From Pseudoalteromonas translucida KMM 520 (GTDB taxonomy: Bacteria > Pseudomonadota > Gammaproteobacteria > Enterobacterales > Alteromonadaceae): 32,000 bases of DNA. The stretch covers positions 1,650,001-1,682,000 of the forward strand of contig NZ_CP011034.1 in NCBI RefSeq assembly GCF_001465295.1, written 5' to 3'. Both the position numbers and the translations under genes were made by a program. Below, piece by piece: positions 4,668 to 11,037 of this stretch. The number at the start of each line of letters is the position of its first letter. Within the stretch, counting starts at the first letter, position 1. The notes under the pieces were generated by a model. It saw only the letters and a list, made by a program, of their open reading frames with translations. It ran no database searches and had not been told where the DNA came from.

Positions 4668-6563
4668 ATGCAAGCCGAACAAATAGAAATAGCGCAGTTT
4701 TTAGCACAACACCCTCCTTTTAACGATTTACCCACTAAAGCGCTTAACGAGCTGGCGCAACAAGTTGAAGTTGCATACTTTAGAGCGCAAACAGAAATTT
4801 TACAGTTAGGCCAAGATATTGCCGACTTGTACGTTATAAGAAGCGGTTCGGTAGAAATGTATCGTCGTAATGGCGAGCTTTATAATCGTTTAGCTGTGGG
4901 TGGAATATTTGGCCAAATGGGCCTATTGATGAACCGCAAAGTGCGCTTTCCGGCCACTGCACTTGAAGACACGTTGGTTTATTGTATTAATGTTGAATTG
5001 TTTAATCGTTATTGCGATGAGTTTGATGCATTTGCTGATTACTTTGAAACCGACGGCAATGTACGTTTGCACCAAGCTATTGTTGAGCAAGCCGATAGTA
5101 ACGATTTAACGACAGCAAAAGTAAAATCGCTTATTCATCGCGATGTAGTGACAGTATTAACCACTTCTACGGTGCAAGATGTTGCCAAATTAATGAGTGA
5201 AGAAGCGGTTTCATCAGTACTGGTTACAGATATAAATAAGCCCGTTAACGACGATCCTGAAGAAGATGATGGCCAAGTAGTTGGTATAATTACCGACCGA
5301 GATTTACGTAATAAAGTGGTTGCCCCAGGGCTGTCGTTTGACACTCAAGCACAGCATATTATGTCTACTAACTTAGTGATTTTAGATGCTAATGCCTACG
5401 TTTTCGAAGCTGTATTAGCTATGTTAAGAGATAGCCTACATCATTTGCCGGTAGTGCAAAAACGCAGGCCGATTGGGGTAATATCACTGTCTGATATTTT
5501 ACGTTACGAGTCGCAAAGTAGCTTGTTATTAGTGCGTGGTATTTTGGCCCAGCAATCAGTGGAAGACTTAACCCATTATGCCCGCCAGTTACCTAATGTA
5601 TTTGTACGTATGGTTAACGAAGATGCAAACTCTCATATGGTTGGTACAGCCATGGCAGTGATTGGCCGTACTTTTAAGCAAAGGCTATTAATATTAGCTG
5701 AAGAAAAGTATGGGCCAGCTCCCGTGCCTTATTGTTTTATTGCTTTAGGCTCCATGGCACGCGATGAGCAACTTATAGTGACGGATCAAGATAATGCGCT
5801 TATTTTAGATGACAGTTACAACGATGAGTTGCATAACGAATACTTTCAAAATATTGCAGACTTTGTTTGCGATGGTTTAGCACAATGTGGCTACACCTAT
5901 TGTGATGGCGAAATTATGGCGTCATTCAAAAAGTGGCGTAAAACTCGCTCCCAGTGGTTTGAGCAATTTGCAGATTGGATAGCAAAGCCAAAGCCACAAA
6001 CGTTATTACACAGCTCCATATTTTTTGATTTGGACGGCGTTTGGGGTAAAACAAAATGGGCCGATGAGCTCAAAGTCTTTGTTGCTAAACAAAGCAAAGC
6101 AAATAGGGTGTTTTTGGCAAATATGGCTGCTAATGCGCGTAATCGAACGCCGCCTCTTGGGTTCTTCAAGGGTTTTGTTTTAGAGCATAACGGCCAGCAT
6201 AAGCACTCAATGAACTTAAAACGCCGTGGTACCGCACCACTTTCTGATGTAATACGGGTGCATGCATTAGCGATTGGTTCACGAAAACAAAACTCGTTTG
6301 ACCGCCTTGAGGATATAATTGCTGCAAAAAGCTTACCCGAGGGTAAAGCACAAGATTTACGTGATGCACTGGAATATATAGCTATGATGCGAATTCGTCA
6401 TCAAGCATTACAAATAGAGCAAGGTGAAGAACCCGATAATAATTTAGATCCACATCAACTTTCACCGTTTGAGCAGCGTAATTTAAAAGAGGCATTTGCG
6501 ATCCTTGAAAAAGCGCAAAATTATCTAAAATTTAGCTTTATTTCAAATACAAGTGTGAAGTGA
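4668..6563 (+). CDS. Cyclic-nucleotide-binding / CBS-pair / DUF294-type nucleotidyltransferase protein
   Basis: 631 aa. N-terminal cNMP-binding-like fold (YVIRSGSVEMY...GGIFGQMGLL), then two CBS repeats (VTDRDLRNKV, HHLPVV...GVISLSDIL). A pol-beta-type NTase motif follows (ALGSMARDEQLIVTDQDNALIL), then a helical C-terminal substrate-binding-like domain. Confidence 0.8.
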   Translation: MQAEQIEIAQFLAQHPPFNDLPTKALNELAQQVEVAYFRAQTEILQLGQDIADLYVIRSGSVEMYRRNGELYNRLAVGGIFGQMGLLMNRKVRFPATALEDTLVYCINVELFNRYCDEFDAFADYFETDGNVRLHQAIVEQADSNDLTTAKVKSLIHRDVVTVLTTSTVQDVAKLMSEEAVSSVLVTDINKPVNDDPEEDDGQVVGIITDRDLRNKVVAPGLSFDTQAQHIMSTNLVILDANAYVFEAVLAMLRDSLHHLPVVQKRRPIGVISLSDILRYESQSSLLLVRGILAQQSVEDLTHYARQLPNVFVRMVNEDANSHMVGTAMAVIGRTFKQRLLILAEEKYGPAPVPYCFIALGSMARDEQLIVTDQDNALILDDSYNDELHNEYFQNIADFVCDGLAQCGYTYCDGEIMASFKKWRKTRSQWFEQFADWIAKPKPQTLLHSSIFFDLDGVWGKTKWADELKVFVAKQSKANRVFLANMAANARNRTPPLGFFKGFVLEHNGQHKHSMNLKRRGTAPLSDVIRVHALAIGSRKQNSFDRLEDIIAAKSLPEGKAQDLRDALEYIAMMRIRHQALQIEQGEEPDNNLDPHQLSPFEQRNLKEAFAILEKAQNYLKFSFISNTSVK

Positions 6564-7372: not shown

Positions 7373-8953
7373 TTACTTTTTAGTACGAGGTTCAGTACGT
7401 AAGCCCAACACTAAGCTTAAACACATAAACAACAATACAATAGTAAAAGGTAATCCGGCAGATATAGCGCCAGCTTGCAGCGCTTGTATAGCTTCAGTAC
7501 CACCTATCCAAAGTAGTGCGGCAGCTACCGCACCTTGGGTCACAGCCCAAAAGATACGTTGTGGTACAGGTGCATCAATTTTGCCACCAGCGGTGATCGA
7601 ATCAATTACCAATGAACCAGAATCCGATGACGTAATAAAAAACACCAATACTAAAATAATCGCTACAAACGATAAAATGTTAGACAAAGGTAATGCATCA
7701 AACATTTGGAACATAGCAAGTGGTACTTCAGTAAGGCCGTTAGTACCTAGCTCACCTACATTATTAACCACCTGATCAATAGCAATACCGCCGTATATAG
7801 ACATCCACAAAATAGTAACAGCAGTAGGCACTAGTAATACCGCAATTAAAAATTCACGTATAGTACGACCACGAGAAACACGCGCAATAAACATACCTAC
7901 AAACGGTGACCAGGAAATCCACCACGCCCAGTACGATACAGTCCAGCCGTGCATCCAGGTTTCATCTTCACGACCATGAGGATTACTTAAAGGAATAATA
8001 TTTTCTACATAGCCCATTATGGTAGTAGGAACATTACCTATAGCAACAGCAAAGCCAACTAAAAATACAAACACAAGTAAAACCAAGGCAATTAACATAT
8101 TGGCATTACTAAGTACTTTTACTCCGCCATCAATCCCTCTAACTACCGAAATAATAGCTAAAAGTGAAACCCCAATAATAACTAAAATTTGTGAACCAAC
8201 ACCGCCAGAGGTACCAAATACATGATCTATACCTGCAGAGGCTTGTTGTGCTCCTAACCCTAGTGAAGTTGCAAGACCAAAGAGTGTTGCAAGCACAGCT
8301 AAAATGTCGATAAGGTGGCCAGGCCATCCCCATGCTCTATCACCTAAAATAGGATAAAAAATAGAACGGATAGACAGTGGTAAACCTTTGTTATAAGTAA
8401 AGAATGCAAGTGAAAGTGCGACAACTGCATAAATAGCCCACGGATGCAGACCCCAATGGAACATAGTTGCGCCCATTGCTAGTTTTGCAGCCTCTGGTGT
8501 ATTAGGAGCTACATTTAAAGGTGTTTCAAACCAGCCAGTATAATAAGCAAGCGGTTCTGCAACACCCCAAAACATTAGGCCAATACCCATACCTGCAGCA
8601 AATAACATAGCTAACCATGAAAGGCGAGAGTGAGTAGGTACTGCATCATCTCCCCCTAAACGTATTTTACCGTAAGGCGATACAATTAGTGCTAAACAAA
8701 AAATAACGAAAAAGTTAGCAGCCCACATAAATAAGGCGTCAAAGTTATTAATAATATCTGTTTTTATACTATCAAGTGCAGACTTAGCTGTTTGTGGATC
8801 GGTAACTAAAATAGCGATCAAAAAGATGACAATCAGACCAGCACTTATGCCGAAAACAGAGTTATGTATATCTAACCCCCATTTTTGTACGTTGTCTTGA
8901 CCTACGGTATAGTCCGTACTATCAATACTATATTTGTCATGCTCTTCGCTCAT
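7373..8953 (-). CDS. BCCT-family (betaine/carnitine/choline-type) transporter
   Basis: Polytopic membrane protein with the BCCT signature WTVSYWAWWISWSPFVGMFIARVSRGRTIREF. The ORF opens at 8965, but the ATG at 8953 (MSEEHDKY...) has GAGG 6 nt upstream, so I prefer it. Confidence 0.9.
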   Translation of the reverse strand: MSEEHDKYSIDSTDYTVGQDNVQKWGLDIHNSVFGISAGLIVIFLIAILVTDPQTAKSALDSIKTDIINNFDALFMWAANFFVIFCLALIVSPYGKIRLGGDDAVPTHSRLSWLAMLFAAGMGIGLMFWGVAEPLAYYTGWFETPLNVAPNTPEAAKLAMGATMFHWGLHPWAIYAVVALSLAFFTYNKGLPLSIRSIFYPILGDRAWGWPGHLIDILAVLATLFGLATSLGLGAQQASAGIDHVFGTSGGVGSQILVIIGVSLLAIISVVRGIDGGVKVLSNANMLIALVLLVFVFLVGFAVAIGNVPTTIMGYVENIIPLSNPHGREDETWMHGWTVSYWAWWISWSPFVGMFIARVSRGRTIREFLIAVLLVPTAVTILWMSIYGGIAIDQVVNNVGELGTNGLTEVPLAMFQMFDALPLSNILSFVAIILVLVFFITSSDSGSLVIDSITAGGKIDAPVPQRIFWAVTQGAVAAALLWIGGTEAIQALQAGAISAGLPFTIVLLFMCLSLVLGLRTEPRTKK

Positions 8954-9225
8954 GCAATACCTCATTTGTTGTTCTAACCCTGGATGTTACCCAGTGTCGT
9001 AATTAATTATATTAGTCTTGTAATTATATTAGTTTAAACACAAATAATTAGAAGACTAACTAATCTGATTTTTGATCATTAACTTTACTAGTGTATGAGT
9101 TAAATACTAAATGTAAATGATTTTGTATTTAGACTGCTGATATTATAGTCAAAATGGTGATATTTGTTGCTTTTAAGTATAAAAAACAAACACTCTCTAA
9201 CTTGTTAAATTAGTTTACTATTTAC

Positions 9226-9540
9226 TAGGGCCTGTTGATCTTTCAAGGTTAAATTTGCAGCCGTGTGTTTGGTATTAAGGCAAGGCAGAGCCTATGTGGT
9301 GTGGTTATTCCCCATAAATAGGCGATAACGCAGCATCAATGCCAAACATACGCTGCCCGAAGGGTTCTGCCTAGGAGCGATTGACTCTTTGTTGCCTACA
9401 TGGATGTAGGTAAGGGGCGTGAGCAGGACGCGGAAGCTTTGCTCGGTTTTTACTTAGCCCACTAGGTTACAAATCTCGCGCCGCGATTAAATCGCCCCTA
9501 GTTTGAACAAATTTTAATCCGCAAAGGCCAACAGGCCCTA
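9226..9540 (+). ncRNA. Candidate structured RNA or repeat element, closed by a 12-bp perfect inverted repeat (class unknown)
   Basis: TAGGGCCTGTTG (9226-9237) pairs with CAACAGGCCCTA (9529-9540), and the helix extends to about 9256/9509. Internal stems are 9257-9276/9338-9356, 9392-9400/9405-9413, 9413-9419/9493-9499 and 9421-9425/9440-9444. G-T wobbles are compatible with the + strand only. Local G+C is far above the flanks, and no ORF of 60 aa or more is present. Confidence 0.4.
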
Positions 9541-9654
9541 ATACATATACGAGAACACTTATAAATCAGCGCATATTATCCGAGAATAGAATTATAAAAA
9601 CACATAGGTAAATAATTACTGTCACGAAGTATGTAAATACTAATAAGCTGCTAA

Positions 9655-9685
9655 TTAAAGGTGCCTAATATAACCGCACCTTTAA
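9655..9685 (+). promoter_or_regulatory. Perfect 10-bp stem hairpin or palindrome in the egtB upstream region
   Basis: TTAAAGGTGC (9655-9664) pairs with GCACCTTTAA (9676-9685) around an 11-nt loop, about 78 nt upstream of the egtB ATG. No T tract follows on either strand. Confidence 0.35.
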
Positions 9686-9762
9686 TCTAGGAATACTTAG
9701 TATATGATTTAACATTAGGTTATATTTTAACAGTAAAGTAGTTAAAGGAGTAAATTGCGACT

Positions 9763-11037
9763 ATGACTAATGATATTAAACATTTAGTTGGAAAAAATGA
9801 GCTTAGTGATCATTTTAAATCGGTACGTAAATATAGCCTATCACTCATTAGTGCGTTAAGTGCAGAAGACTGTCAATTACAAGTAATGGCCGATGTAAGC
9901 CCAAGTAAATGGCATCTTGGGCATACCAGTTGGTTTTTTGAAACATTTTTACTTGGCATTCATAGCCGTAATTACAAAGTATTTAACCCTGAGTTTAAAA
10001 TATTATTTAATTCTTACTACAACGGAATTGGTGAGCAATTTAAGCGGGGTAACAGAGGAAGCCTATCGAGGCCGAGTCTTGATGACGTAATAGCATACAG
10101 ACGATATGTTGATGAGGCCGTTATTAGCGTGTTAAATACTGCAATAACCCCAGAAATAGAGCAAATAATTACTCTTGGCCTAAATCATGAGCAACAACAC
10201 CAAGAGCTAATGTTGATGGATATTAAGTATAACTTTTCTATTAACCCAATATTTCCTGCGTACCAATCACTAAAGCCAACTCAAATACCAAACCAGCAAT
10301 CCAGTGCCGCTATAAAATTTATAAACTTTGACCAAGCAATTATAAATATAGGGAGCAATGCTGAAAACCAATTTGCCTACGATAACGAACAACCGAAACA
10401 CCCGGTGCTGGTTCATCCATTTAGCTTTGCTAATAGATTAGTGACTAATGCAGAGTATTTAGCCTTTATTAATAGCTCTGGCTATAGCAACCCGCAACAT
10501 TGGCTAAGTGATGGCTGGGCACATATACAGGCTAATAATTTAACACAGCCATTGTATTGGTATTATATAAACGGGGAGTGGTTTGAGTTTACCCATTACG
10601 GACTATTACCCCTTAACTTAGCCGCGCCGGTTTGTCATGTTAGTTACTATGAGGCTAGCGCTTATGCAAGTTTTGTTAATGCACGCCTGCCTACAGAGTT
10701 TGAATGGGAATATGCAGCCCAACAACACGCACCAAGCAATACAACACATTCGTCACTTTTATTGCCAAATATGGCCGATAGTAGCGCTGCTATTGGGCAG
10801 CTTACAGATAGCTGCTGGCAATGGACAAACAGTGCTTATTTACCTTACCCTGGTTTTAAGCCAATTGCAGGCGTGGCAGGAGAGTACAATGGTAAGTTTA
10901 TGAGCAATCAAACGGTATTACGTGGCGGTTGTGTGCTTACTCCTGCAAATCATTTACGTACAACCTACAGAAACTTTTATTATCCCCATCAAGCCTGGAT
11001 GTGTAGTGGTATAAGACTCGCTAAGGATAAAATATGA
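9763..11037 (+). CDS. egtB: Hercynine oxygenase / sulfoxide synthase EgtB (DinB_2 plus FGE-sulfatase-like domains)
   Basis: 424 aa. The DinB-type N-terminal domain has metal-ligand-like His motifs (WHLGHTSWFFE; NHEQQHQELM). The C-terminal FGE-like domain carries VTNAEYLAFI, WEYAA, GQLTDSCWQWT and VLRGGC. It overlaps egtD by ATGA. Confidence 0.85.
   Translation: MTNDIKHLVGKNELSDHFKSVRKYSLSLISALSAEDCQLQVMADVSPSKWHLGHTSWFFETFLLGIHSRNYKVFNPEFKILFNSYYNGIGEQFKRGNRGSLSRPSLDDVIAYRRYVDEAVISVLNTAITPEIEQIITLGLNHEQQHQELMLMDIKYNFSINPIFPAYQSLKPTQIPNQQSSAAIKFINFDQAIINIGSNAENQFAYDNEQPKHPVLVHPFSFANRLVTNAEYLAFINSSGYSNPQHWLSDGWAHIQANNLTQPLYWYYINGEWFEFTHYGLLPLNLAAPVCHVSYYEASAYASFVNARLPTEFEWEYAAQQHAPSNTTHSSLLLPNMADSSAAIGQLTDSCWQWTNSAYLPYPGFKPIAGVAGEYNGKFMSNQTVLRGGCVLTPANHLRTTYRNFYYPHQAWMCSGIRLAKDKI

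Follow-up and report, generated by a model that had tools for sequence, protein, structure and literature searches.

Between the divergent genes for a BCCT transporter and EgtB in Pseudoalteromonas translucida KMM 520 lies a G+C-rich, strongly folding block, found in a 32,000-nucleotide stretch of the genome that is referred to here, at its full length, as the window. An earlier note, made from the sequence alone, had proposed this block as a candidate structured RNA or egt leader, with a TA-flanked MITE (a miniature transposable element with inverted repeats) as the alternative. Our analysis leaves us confident that the block is a 311-bp non-coding MITE of the ISSod6 type, a confidence that covers this identity and not the role of the fold. 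The element is short and non-coding, carries terminal inverted repeats, duplicated a TA as judged by comparison of filled and empty sites, recurs in dispersed copies, and has autonomous counterparts with matching termini; its assignment as a derivative of the IS5 family draws on the DDE_Tnp_1 transposase of these partners and on the shared target duplication. The MITE alternative of the earlier note was therefore the one borne out, with the terminal inverted repeats, the TA duplication and the empty site all shown.

The insertion itself was resolved by comparison with a metagenome scaffold, L131, which has the same gene order, encodes an EgtB that is 98% identical to that of the window, and has a BCCT-egtB spacer of 498 nt. 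In alignment, the flanks of this spacer are 100% identical to those of the window and enclose a single TA and no element: the window reads ATTTAC-TA-[GGGCC...311 nt...GGCCC]-TA-ATACAT, and L131 reads ATTTAC-TA-ATACAT. From this alignment it follows that the element proper occupies positions 9228-9538 and that the TA was duplicated; the element has inserted at a TA in the BCCT-egtB spacer, and the insertion appears to be recent on the scale of the window's lineage. Duplications of 4 bp (YTAR or CTAG) or 9 bp were considered and are incompatible with the window's empty site. In two Pseudoalteromonas strains the element occupies different spacers of one kinase-cstA-cupin neighbourhood. The pair L002/L004 was rejected as empty-site evidence because its flanks are too divergent to define a junction. 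As a separate observation on the scaffold with the empty site, its egtD homologue (L131:4275-5292) is called at only 145 aa, with a gap of ~580 nt downstream of egtB, as compared with 319 aa in the window's source genome (L001); the short call could reflect a disruption or an assembly problem.

The same comparison bears on the proposal that the block is specific to this locus and serves egtBD as a cis-regulatory leader or riboswitch, or regulates the BCCT gene. The block does sit between the divergent BCCT and egtB genes, is highly structured and is oriented like egtB, yet it is absent from the spacer of the relative with the 98% identical EgtB, and it is probably absent from the ~407-nt BCCT-egtB spacers of two more distant loci (L132 and L133, EgtB 72% identical), spacers that were not searched for the element. 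In addition, the other copies all have unrelated genes beside them, without bias in orientation, and no Rfam match was obtained. With the empty L131 spacer, at least 138 dispersed copies beside unrelated genes and an unbiased orientation, the locus-specific RNA favoured by the earlier note is refuted, and we regard a leader of this kind as scarcely credible. The element appears to have no specific relation to the ergothioneine genes.

We searched for dispersed copies by running the block, in a sensitive blastn, against records of plasmids and chromids, and obtained 93 places in 20 records of Pseudoalteromonas, Vibrio, Catenovulum and Saccharobesus, with identities of 68-85%, none of them annotated and as many as 23 in one 906-kb chromid; a chromid of Pseudoalteromonas sp. 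Bsw20308 has this number. Ten copies, when aligned, had sharp common ends and unrelated flanks. A scan of one-genome-per-species contigs with a two-motif core pattern identified at least 120 stretches in about 15 genera (Shewanella, Vibrio, Grimontia, Enterovibrio, Pseudoalteromonas, Thalassotalea, Alishewanella, Rheinheimera, Bowmanella, Aliidiomarina, Oceanisphaera, Alkalimonas, Algicola, Agarivorans and Psychromonas); this pattern fixes two core motifs, so the invariance of those motifs in the genome sample is no evidence. With nhmmer, at least 138 copies were recovered, 121 of which are full length with flanks and sharp ends. Across the family, copies begin and end as TA-GGGNNTGTTGAYCTTT...AAAGRTCAACANNCCC-TA, and the main length class is 266-270 nt, while optional inserts are present in longer classes; the window copy, with an optional 47-nt module, falls in the 315-nt class (both TAs counted). 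Neighbouring genes are unrelated among copies (cstA, ppsA, a TetR gene, ABC-F and others), and orientation relative to flanking open reading frames (ORFs) is unbiased: co-oriented copies number 31 and anti-oriented ones 25, and a further 27 lie where genes converge and 17 where they diverge. A phage collection gave no match to the block. These data define a large MITE family across marine Gammaproteobacteria; we found no description of it in Rfam 15 or in the literature searched, and it may have been described earlier.

Among the 121 copies, the left TA is preceded by C in 70 and by T in 35, and the right TA is followed by G in 65 and by A in 43, which suggests a symmetric Y-TA-R target in which CTAG is favoured.

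To the element we could assign a family of autonomous partners. Searched alone by blastn, the 38-nt left end matched seven places on the megaplasmid of Shewanella oneidensis MR-1, where the matches adjoin a gene annotated 'IS5-like element ISSod6 family transposase'. This insertion sequence (IS), ISSod6, is 879 bp long and reads c-TA-GGGTCTGTTGATCTTTCGAG...CAGCAAAGATCAACAGACCC-TA-a; its transposase of 252 aa contains DUF4096 (PF13340) and DDE_Tnp_1 (PF01609) and scores 278.6 bits against NF033580, for which the cutoff is 110. Homologues with 64-75% identity were found by tblastn on the chromid of Pseudoalteromonas sp. HL-AS2 and on a V. alginolyticus plasmid, and the ISs at both places share the termini, in a GGGCG variant that is also found in MITE subfamilies. 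IS and MITE reside together in the HL-AS2 and HL-AS1 chromids, the former with five IS places and eight MITE places in one record. All three of the insertion sequences retrieved have TA on both sides. That of the V. alginolyticus plasmid interrupts traC, and when its flanks are joined through a single TA, 402 of 402 bases match an uninterrupted traC from a V. parahaemolyticus plasmid, so the autonomous elements also duplicate TA. The ISSod6-type ISs probably belong to the IS427 or ISL2 subgroup of ISfinder.

The element and the ISSod6-type ISs (~880 bp) thus share terminal inverted repeats (GGGNNTGTTGATCTTT.../...AAAGATCAACANNCCC; 20-24 bp in the element, GGGNNTGTTGAYCTTT...), about 35-40 bp of similarity at each end, the TA duplication, the terminus variants TC/GA and CG/CG, and co-residence in replicons. 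They differ in that the window element lacks a transposase gene and that its interior of ~190-270 nt shows no evident similarity to the ISs (compared by eye with the ends of three ISs) and has a conserved fold of its own. In the mechanism that these likenesses suggest, an ISSod6-like DDE transposase supplied in trans would bind both termini and move the element. A brute-force inverted-repeat search for pairs 850-1900 bp apart returned noise and no partner.

TA duplication and a CTAG-like target are classic for IS630, and the earlier note had specified a MITE of IS630/Tc1-mariner type. Both features are found here, but the termini (GGGNNTGTTGA) are identical to those of ISSod6-like IS5-family elements with DUF4096 and DDE_Tnp_1 (NF033580), and the TA duplication is not diagnostic, since the IS5-family partner does likewise. 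Moreover, a regular-expression search over ORFs found no YSPxxNPxE, the IS630/Tc1 catalytic signature, in ~1 Mb of retrieved loci. This part of the earlier proposal was therefore abandoned, and membership of the IS630/Tc1-mariner superfamily is very improbable. Movement as single-stranded DNA by an HUH transposase (IS200/IS605-like), which would insert 3' of a TA and carry its own TA without duplication, is formally compatible with the filled and empty sites, read as TA + [GGG...CCCTA], and a folded single strand would explain the conserved hairpins. However, the target preference is symmetric (Y precedes the left TA, and R follows the right one), as are the long inverted repeats, and a DDE-type IS5-family element with identical termini has duplicated TA in traC; we give this mechanism almost no credence. 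The ISSod6-type identity is the one retained in what follows.

A few further observations concern the partners and their termini. A gene annotated as a TnpB-family RNA-guided endonuclease (L135:1402-1553) lies directly downstream of the HL-AS2 ISSod6-like element, an adjacency that is probably a coincidence of mobile-element clustering. In Acinetobacter plasmids, the 38-nt left end has matches of ~85% over 33 nt under 'IS5 family transposase' annotations, and this terminus type may be widespread among IS5-family elements beyond marine bacteria. Deletion primers for lpg2920-21 of Legionella pneumophila (primer table of PMC12457610) contain TTTAGGGTCTGTTGAC, which equals the family left terminus; this may reflect a related element or chance.

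Copies vary in a modular manner. The 47-nt module of the window copy is present in the 314-315, 326 and 363-nt classes and not in the 266-270-nt classes. It and a 48-nt sister module (ATTCTTACATGGATGTAAG...CAGTTATCG) occur at fixed sites in some copies; the 363-nt copies are L002, L004, L061 and L124. Orthologous copies in P. shioyasakiensis (L009:3000-3267) and P. gelatinilytica (L077:7534-7848) are 99.3% identical and differ only by the 47-nt module and two substitutions. The comparison shows the module to be bounded by a TTG repeat, and since the two copies differ by the whole module, it was gained or lost in place. Module-like sequence also occurs alone, on a Saccharobesus plasmid and at L052:1481. 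Vibrio and Grimontia copies have G+C-rich inserts of 13-17 nt (e.g., GAGCTGGGCGCCCCCGC and AGGCGTCCCCATC) at two fixed positions, alignment columns 161-174 and 402-414, some copies with both and some with one (e.g., L053, L103, L114, L126, L027 and L065).

Other arrangements were also seen. L120:600-915 (- strand), at the end of a contig from a Pseudoalteromonas metagenome-assembled genome, has the usual core and strongly diverged, self-complementary termini (TA-AGAGCGAAATGAACTCTAT... / ...ATAGAGTACATTTCGCTCT); these were initially taken as unrelated, a view discarded when alignment showed them to be diverged versions of the family termini. No second copy of this type was found in plasmids, and the metagenome scan gave none. 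Outside known copies, a search with the terminus motif gave only chance matches and one mini element, L071:5683-5731, which consists of little beyond two termini back to back (GGGTCTGTTGAGCTTT ... AAAGGTCAACAGACCC). Two copies stand in direct tandem at L028:4864-5131 and 5136-5396, and two are inverted ~750 bp apart at L078:5198-5456 (+) and 6206-6484 (-), an arrangement in which composite behaviour could be possible.

The features of the block and its surroundings, in window coordinates, are as follows.

9226..9227, no strand: left copy of the duplicated TA target, from the L131 empty-site alignment.
9228..9538, + strand: MITE body, 311 bp, without an ORF of more than 21 aa; full-length nhmmer match (model 1-269, E = 2.9e-86).
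9228..9247, + strand: left terminal inverted repeat GGGCCTGTTGATCTTTCAAG, 5' strand of the closing helix; family consensus GGGNNTGTTGAYCTTT, the same on ISSod6 and on Pseudoalteromonas and Vibrio IS5-family elements.
9257..9356, + strand: domain A, a long imperfect hairpin of consensus helices 3-6; contains the stem 9257-9276/9338-9356 drawn in the earlier note.
9357..9363, + strand: mini-hairpin CC-GAA-GG inside the conserved motif GCTGCCCGAAGGGTTC; its stem is invariant, but part of the search pattern.
9364..9508, + strand: domain B, a long-range hairpin of consensus helices 8-14; includes 9373-9387 paired with 9485-9499.
9392..9438, + strand: optional 47-nt two-hairpin module (TTGCCTACATGGATGTAGGTAAGGGGCGTGAGCAGGACGCGGAAGCT); holds the 9-bp hairpin and half of the 7-bp stem drawn earlier.
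9519..9538, + strand: right terminal inverted repeat CGCAAAGGCCAACAGGCCC, 3' strand of the closing helix; from the family consensus and the helix 1 statistics.
9539..9540, no strand: right copy of the duplicated TA target, from the L131 empty-site alignment.
7373..8965, - strand: BCCT transporter gene, context only; from the ORF list, with Pfam PF02028 on the called gene of 526 aa.
9763..11037, + strand: egtB, context only; Pfam DinB_2 and FGE-sulfatase, homologues named EgtB by their sources.

The element therefore lies 225 nt upstream of the egtB ATG and ~260 nt upstream of the BCCT gene. Its arms are the top inverted repeat of the window and were extended by the repeat finder to 38 nt at 76% complementarity; the 12-nt arms reported previously, TAGGGCCTGTTG (9226-9237) and CAACAGGCCCTA (9529-9540), are indeed perfect complements. 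G+C content is 49% in 9228-9538 as compared with 25% (8966-9225) and 28% (9541-9762) in the flanks, and the hand counts of G+C in the earlier note, 10 in 9001-9060 and 31 in 9361-9420, proved exact. It was also right that no sizeable ORF is present, the longest one inside the block being 21 aa. The internal-loop strands of domain A, CAAGGCAGAG and CGATAACGCAG, are conserved, and the element also contains an internal motif, TTTGTTGA.

Folding of the single sequence is stronger than expected from its composition, at -125.7 kcal/mol (z = -5.4) for the + strand and -113.3 kcal/mol (z = -4.5) for the - strand, with 0 of 100 shuffles as good in either case. The stem 9257-9276/9338-9356, the hairpins 9392-9400/9405-9413 and 9421-9425/9440-9444, the stem 9413-9419/9493-9499 and the complementarity 9284-9293/9362-9371 are all present as drawn in the earlier note. 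The window had no match at the Rfam 15 gathering score, at E up to 10 the window copy gave one chance-level match that lies outside the block, and three divergent copies (window, Vibrio and Alishewanella) gave only chance-level matches (e.g., rimP, mir-5911 and snoTBR7). ARAGORN found no tRNA or tmRNA. A scan of 8900-9800 gave promoter counts no better than those of shuffles and no terminator, and no conserved promoter was seen on inspection of the family consensus. One promoter-like site, 9246-9217 (-), is directed toward the BCCT gene, with a -35 box TTGAAA in the left terminus of the element and a -10 box AATAGT in the flank; it scores 9/12, and the number of such sites is not above that of shuffles.

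At the level of the family the multi-helix fold is real. We computed a consensus with RNAalifold from 268 core columns of the 121-copy alignment (MAFFT), with energies of -169.7 for the + strand and -161.5 for the - strand. It has four parts: the terminal closing helix, hairpin domain A, the CC-GAA-GG mini-hairpin and the long-range hairpin domain B. Over its 98 pairs, 91.6% of cells are paired, as compared with 37-44% when the 3' partners are slid; double-sided changes occur in 64 pairs versus 33-45 in slid controls, and the covariation score is 0.308 versus 0.045-0.074, a value reached by 0 of 500 shuffles. By parsimony on a neighbour-joining tree, 256 double changes from one Watson-Crick pair to another fall on single branches, versus 8-13 for slid controls on the same tree. 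Double-sided changes are seen in 13 of the 21 pairs of the closing helix (helix 1), in 10 of the 18 pairs of helix 3 (93.5% of cells paired) and in 12 of the 13 pairs of helix 10 (93.8%); helices 5 and 6 have 94.2% and 92.4% of cells paired. Several Watson-Crick pair types are found in each of the internal helices 3, 5, 6, 10, 12 and 14, and helices 1, 3 and 10 covary with strands ~85 to 270 nt apart. With the two search-pattern motifs excluded, many unpaired positions are at least 90% conserved across orders.

The closing helix, the long stem and the branched architecture as a whole, which had been drawn from the window alone, gain support from this covariation. Two details call for qualification. 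The 7-bp stem 9413-9419/9493-9499 exists in the window, but the family pairs 9493-9499 with 9373-9379, and 9413-9419 falls in the optional 47-nt module, which most copies do not carry. For the proposed pseudoknot 9284-9293/9362-9371 the complementarity exists, and the lack of double-sided changes there carries no information, as the columns are partly fixed by the search pattern.

Single-sided changes from Watson-Crick to G·U and from Watson-Crick to A·C number 1066/1033, 3696/3672 and 6370/7814 in successive divergence bands. A + strand transcript had been proposed from an excess of G-T over A-C positions; this is not supported, as changes of the two types are equally frequent, and the excess is attributable to four near-fixed wobble pairs, with no general trend. 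Per column, singletons average 0.42 at paired and 0.36 at unpaired positions; of the 83 found in stems, 49 break the pair. Single-sided differences between close neighbours keep pairing in only 25% of cases, and on the tree 352 changes from Watson-Crick to mismatch stand against 61 reversions. Double changes between close neighbours were observed 56 times versus ~11 expected (~5x), and 39 of these are compensatory, an excess that speaks for real constraint. The loop of the mini-hairpin (alignment columns 151-153, window 9359-9361) occurs as reverse-complement pairs, namely GAA 61/TTC 10, AAA 14/TTT 11 and AAC 3/GTT 2, which suggests repeated loop inversion and DNA-level hairpin processes. Our reading is that lineages that are still transposing keep the architecture, and that inserted copies subsequently decay roughly neutrally.

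Could the core be a functional structured RNA carried within the MITE? Such an RNA would be made from the + strand, by read-through or from a remnant of the left-end promoter of the IS, and would serve either the element or its host, for instance through the stabilisation or insulation of transcripts, or in the role of a small RNA or an RNA cofactor. The very strong covariation of local and long-range helices, the conservation of unpaired positions across orders, the four near-fixed wobble pairs, the slightly better folding of the + strand in both the window and the alignment, the conservation of an orthologous copy beyond that of its flanks, and the L120 lineage, which keeps the core while its termini have diverged, are all as expected of such a molecule. 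On the other side are the equal frequency of G·U-type and A·C-type changes, the lack of orientation bias relative to genes, the absence of a conserved promoter from the consensus and of a terminator from 8900-9800, the lack of an Rfam match at E up to 10 for three divergent copies, and private mutations that break stems at the rate expected by chance; in addition, a transcript begun at the promoter remnant, whose -10 box is poor, would miss the 5' strands of the helices with the best support. We consider this explanation unlikely.

The fold may instead have no function, as nested DNA palindromes kept complementary by intrastrand template switching and gene conversion. Reverse-complement loop pairs are the signature of loop inversion, double changes fall for the most part on single branches, intermediates being few, G·U-type changes are symmetric with those of A·C type, and orthologous copies differ by a whole 47-nt hairpin module, all of which would fit. 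Template switching, however, does not explain unpaired motifs that are conserved across orders, accords poorly with helices 1, 3 and 10, in which ~85 to 270 nt separate the two strands, and leaves unexplained the persistence of one architecture from Vibrionales to Alteromonadales. We hold this account to be doubtful, if less so than the structured RNA.

Because of the symmetric wobble statistics and the loop inversions, we favour a role or origin at the level of DNA as somewhat likelier than a strand-specific functional RNA. Candidate explanations of this kind are a transposition substrate that is bound by protein in a folded or cruciform state, or repair templated by hairpins. Taking RNA and DNA together, we suggest tentatively, as a possibility well short of an even chance, that the ~190-nt core is a functional folded nucleic acid needed for propagation, either an RNA (cofactor, regulator or stabiliser) or a single-stranded or cruciform DNA that would be bound by an ISSod6-like transposase or a host factor.

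Several points weigh against the interpretation given here of an ISSod6-type MITE whose inserted copies decay neutrally as DNA. An ISSod6-like transposase in the window's own genome, of which 32 kb was covered, is a supposition. The HL-AS2 IS has the CG/GC terminus variant, and the MITE copy retrieved from the same record has TC/GA. Mobilisation in trans is presumed from the common termini and target duplication. On the + strand, four pairs are near-fixed as G·U and none is fixed as A·C, a hint of one folding strand. Finally, the orthologous L009 and L077 MITEs are 99.3% identical, and their flanks 95.5-97.3%, which contradicts neutral decay; gene conversion between copies could lie behind this identity.

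A folded MITE is a known kind of thing, since MITE transcripts typically form stable stem-loops according to a 2024 review of prokaryotic MITEs (PMC10969869). The Correia elements (CREE) of Neisseria are likewise short, non-coding and intergenic, with terminal inverted repeats, TA duplication and folding transcripts (see also PMC10969869), but they are 100-155 bp long, form a simple hairpin, have no identified partner transposase and are known only from Neisseria, whereas the present family is 266-363 bp long, branched, linked to an identified partner family and spread over several orders. ERIC/IRU elements of Enterobacteriaceae and Vibrionaceae also are non-coding imperfect palindromes, with a conservation across genera that is unusual for selfish DNA and with copy numbers that vary by taxon (PMC10969869); they differ in their length of ~127 bp, in having no defined target duplication and in having no known partner transposase, and we found no sequence similarity between the element and ERIC. 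With IS630/Tc1-mariner MITEs such as RUP of S. pneumoniae the element shares the TA duplication and terminal inverted repeats but not the transposase superfamily, which here is that of IS5. By analogy, the HEARO or omega RNA of IscB and the central domains of CORE-SINEs may offer parallels for a conserved structured core that travels with a mobile element, and for a core more conserved than its ends, as in at least one lineage here (L120). The element core differs from HEARO in having no Rfam match, HEARO included, and no associated RNA-guided protein, and its nature as RNA would be hypothetical.

These results indicate that the block should be labelled as a mobile-element insertion and not as a regulatory RNA of egt. 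Close relatives are polymorphic for the insertion, and any effect on the expression of egtB or the BCCT gene could be at most incidental. The results link the family to ISSod6-like IS5-family transposases. They also illustrate that a transposon family can give rise to strong covariation and high fold z-scores, signals by which riboswitches and non-coding RNAs are commonly picked out, and this is a warning for RNA-discovery pipelines. The depth of core conservation is unusual for a MITE, with 98 pairs, ~256 inferred compensatory events and unpaired motifs kept from Vibrionales to Alteromonadales. If the core does prove to be functional, the family would represent a 'core-domain' MITE lineage of ancient origin, with a parallel in CORE-SINEs or in HEARO at the time when its role had yet to be found; a core of this kind would not be required by an element that had simply arisen from an IS by deletion.

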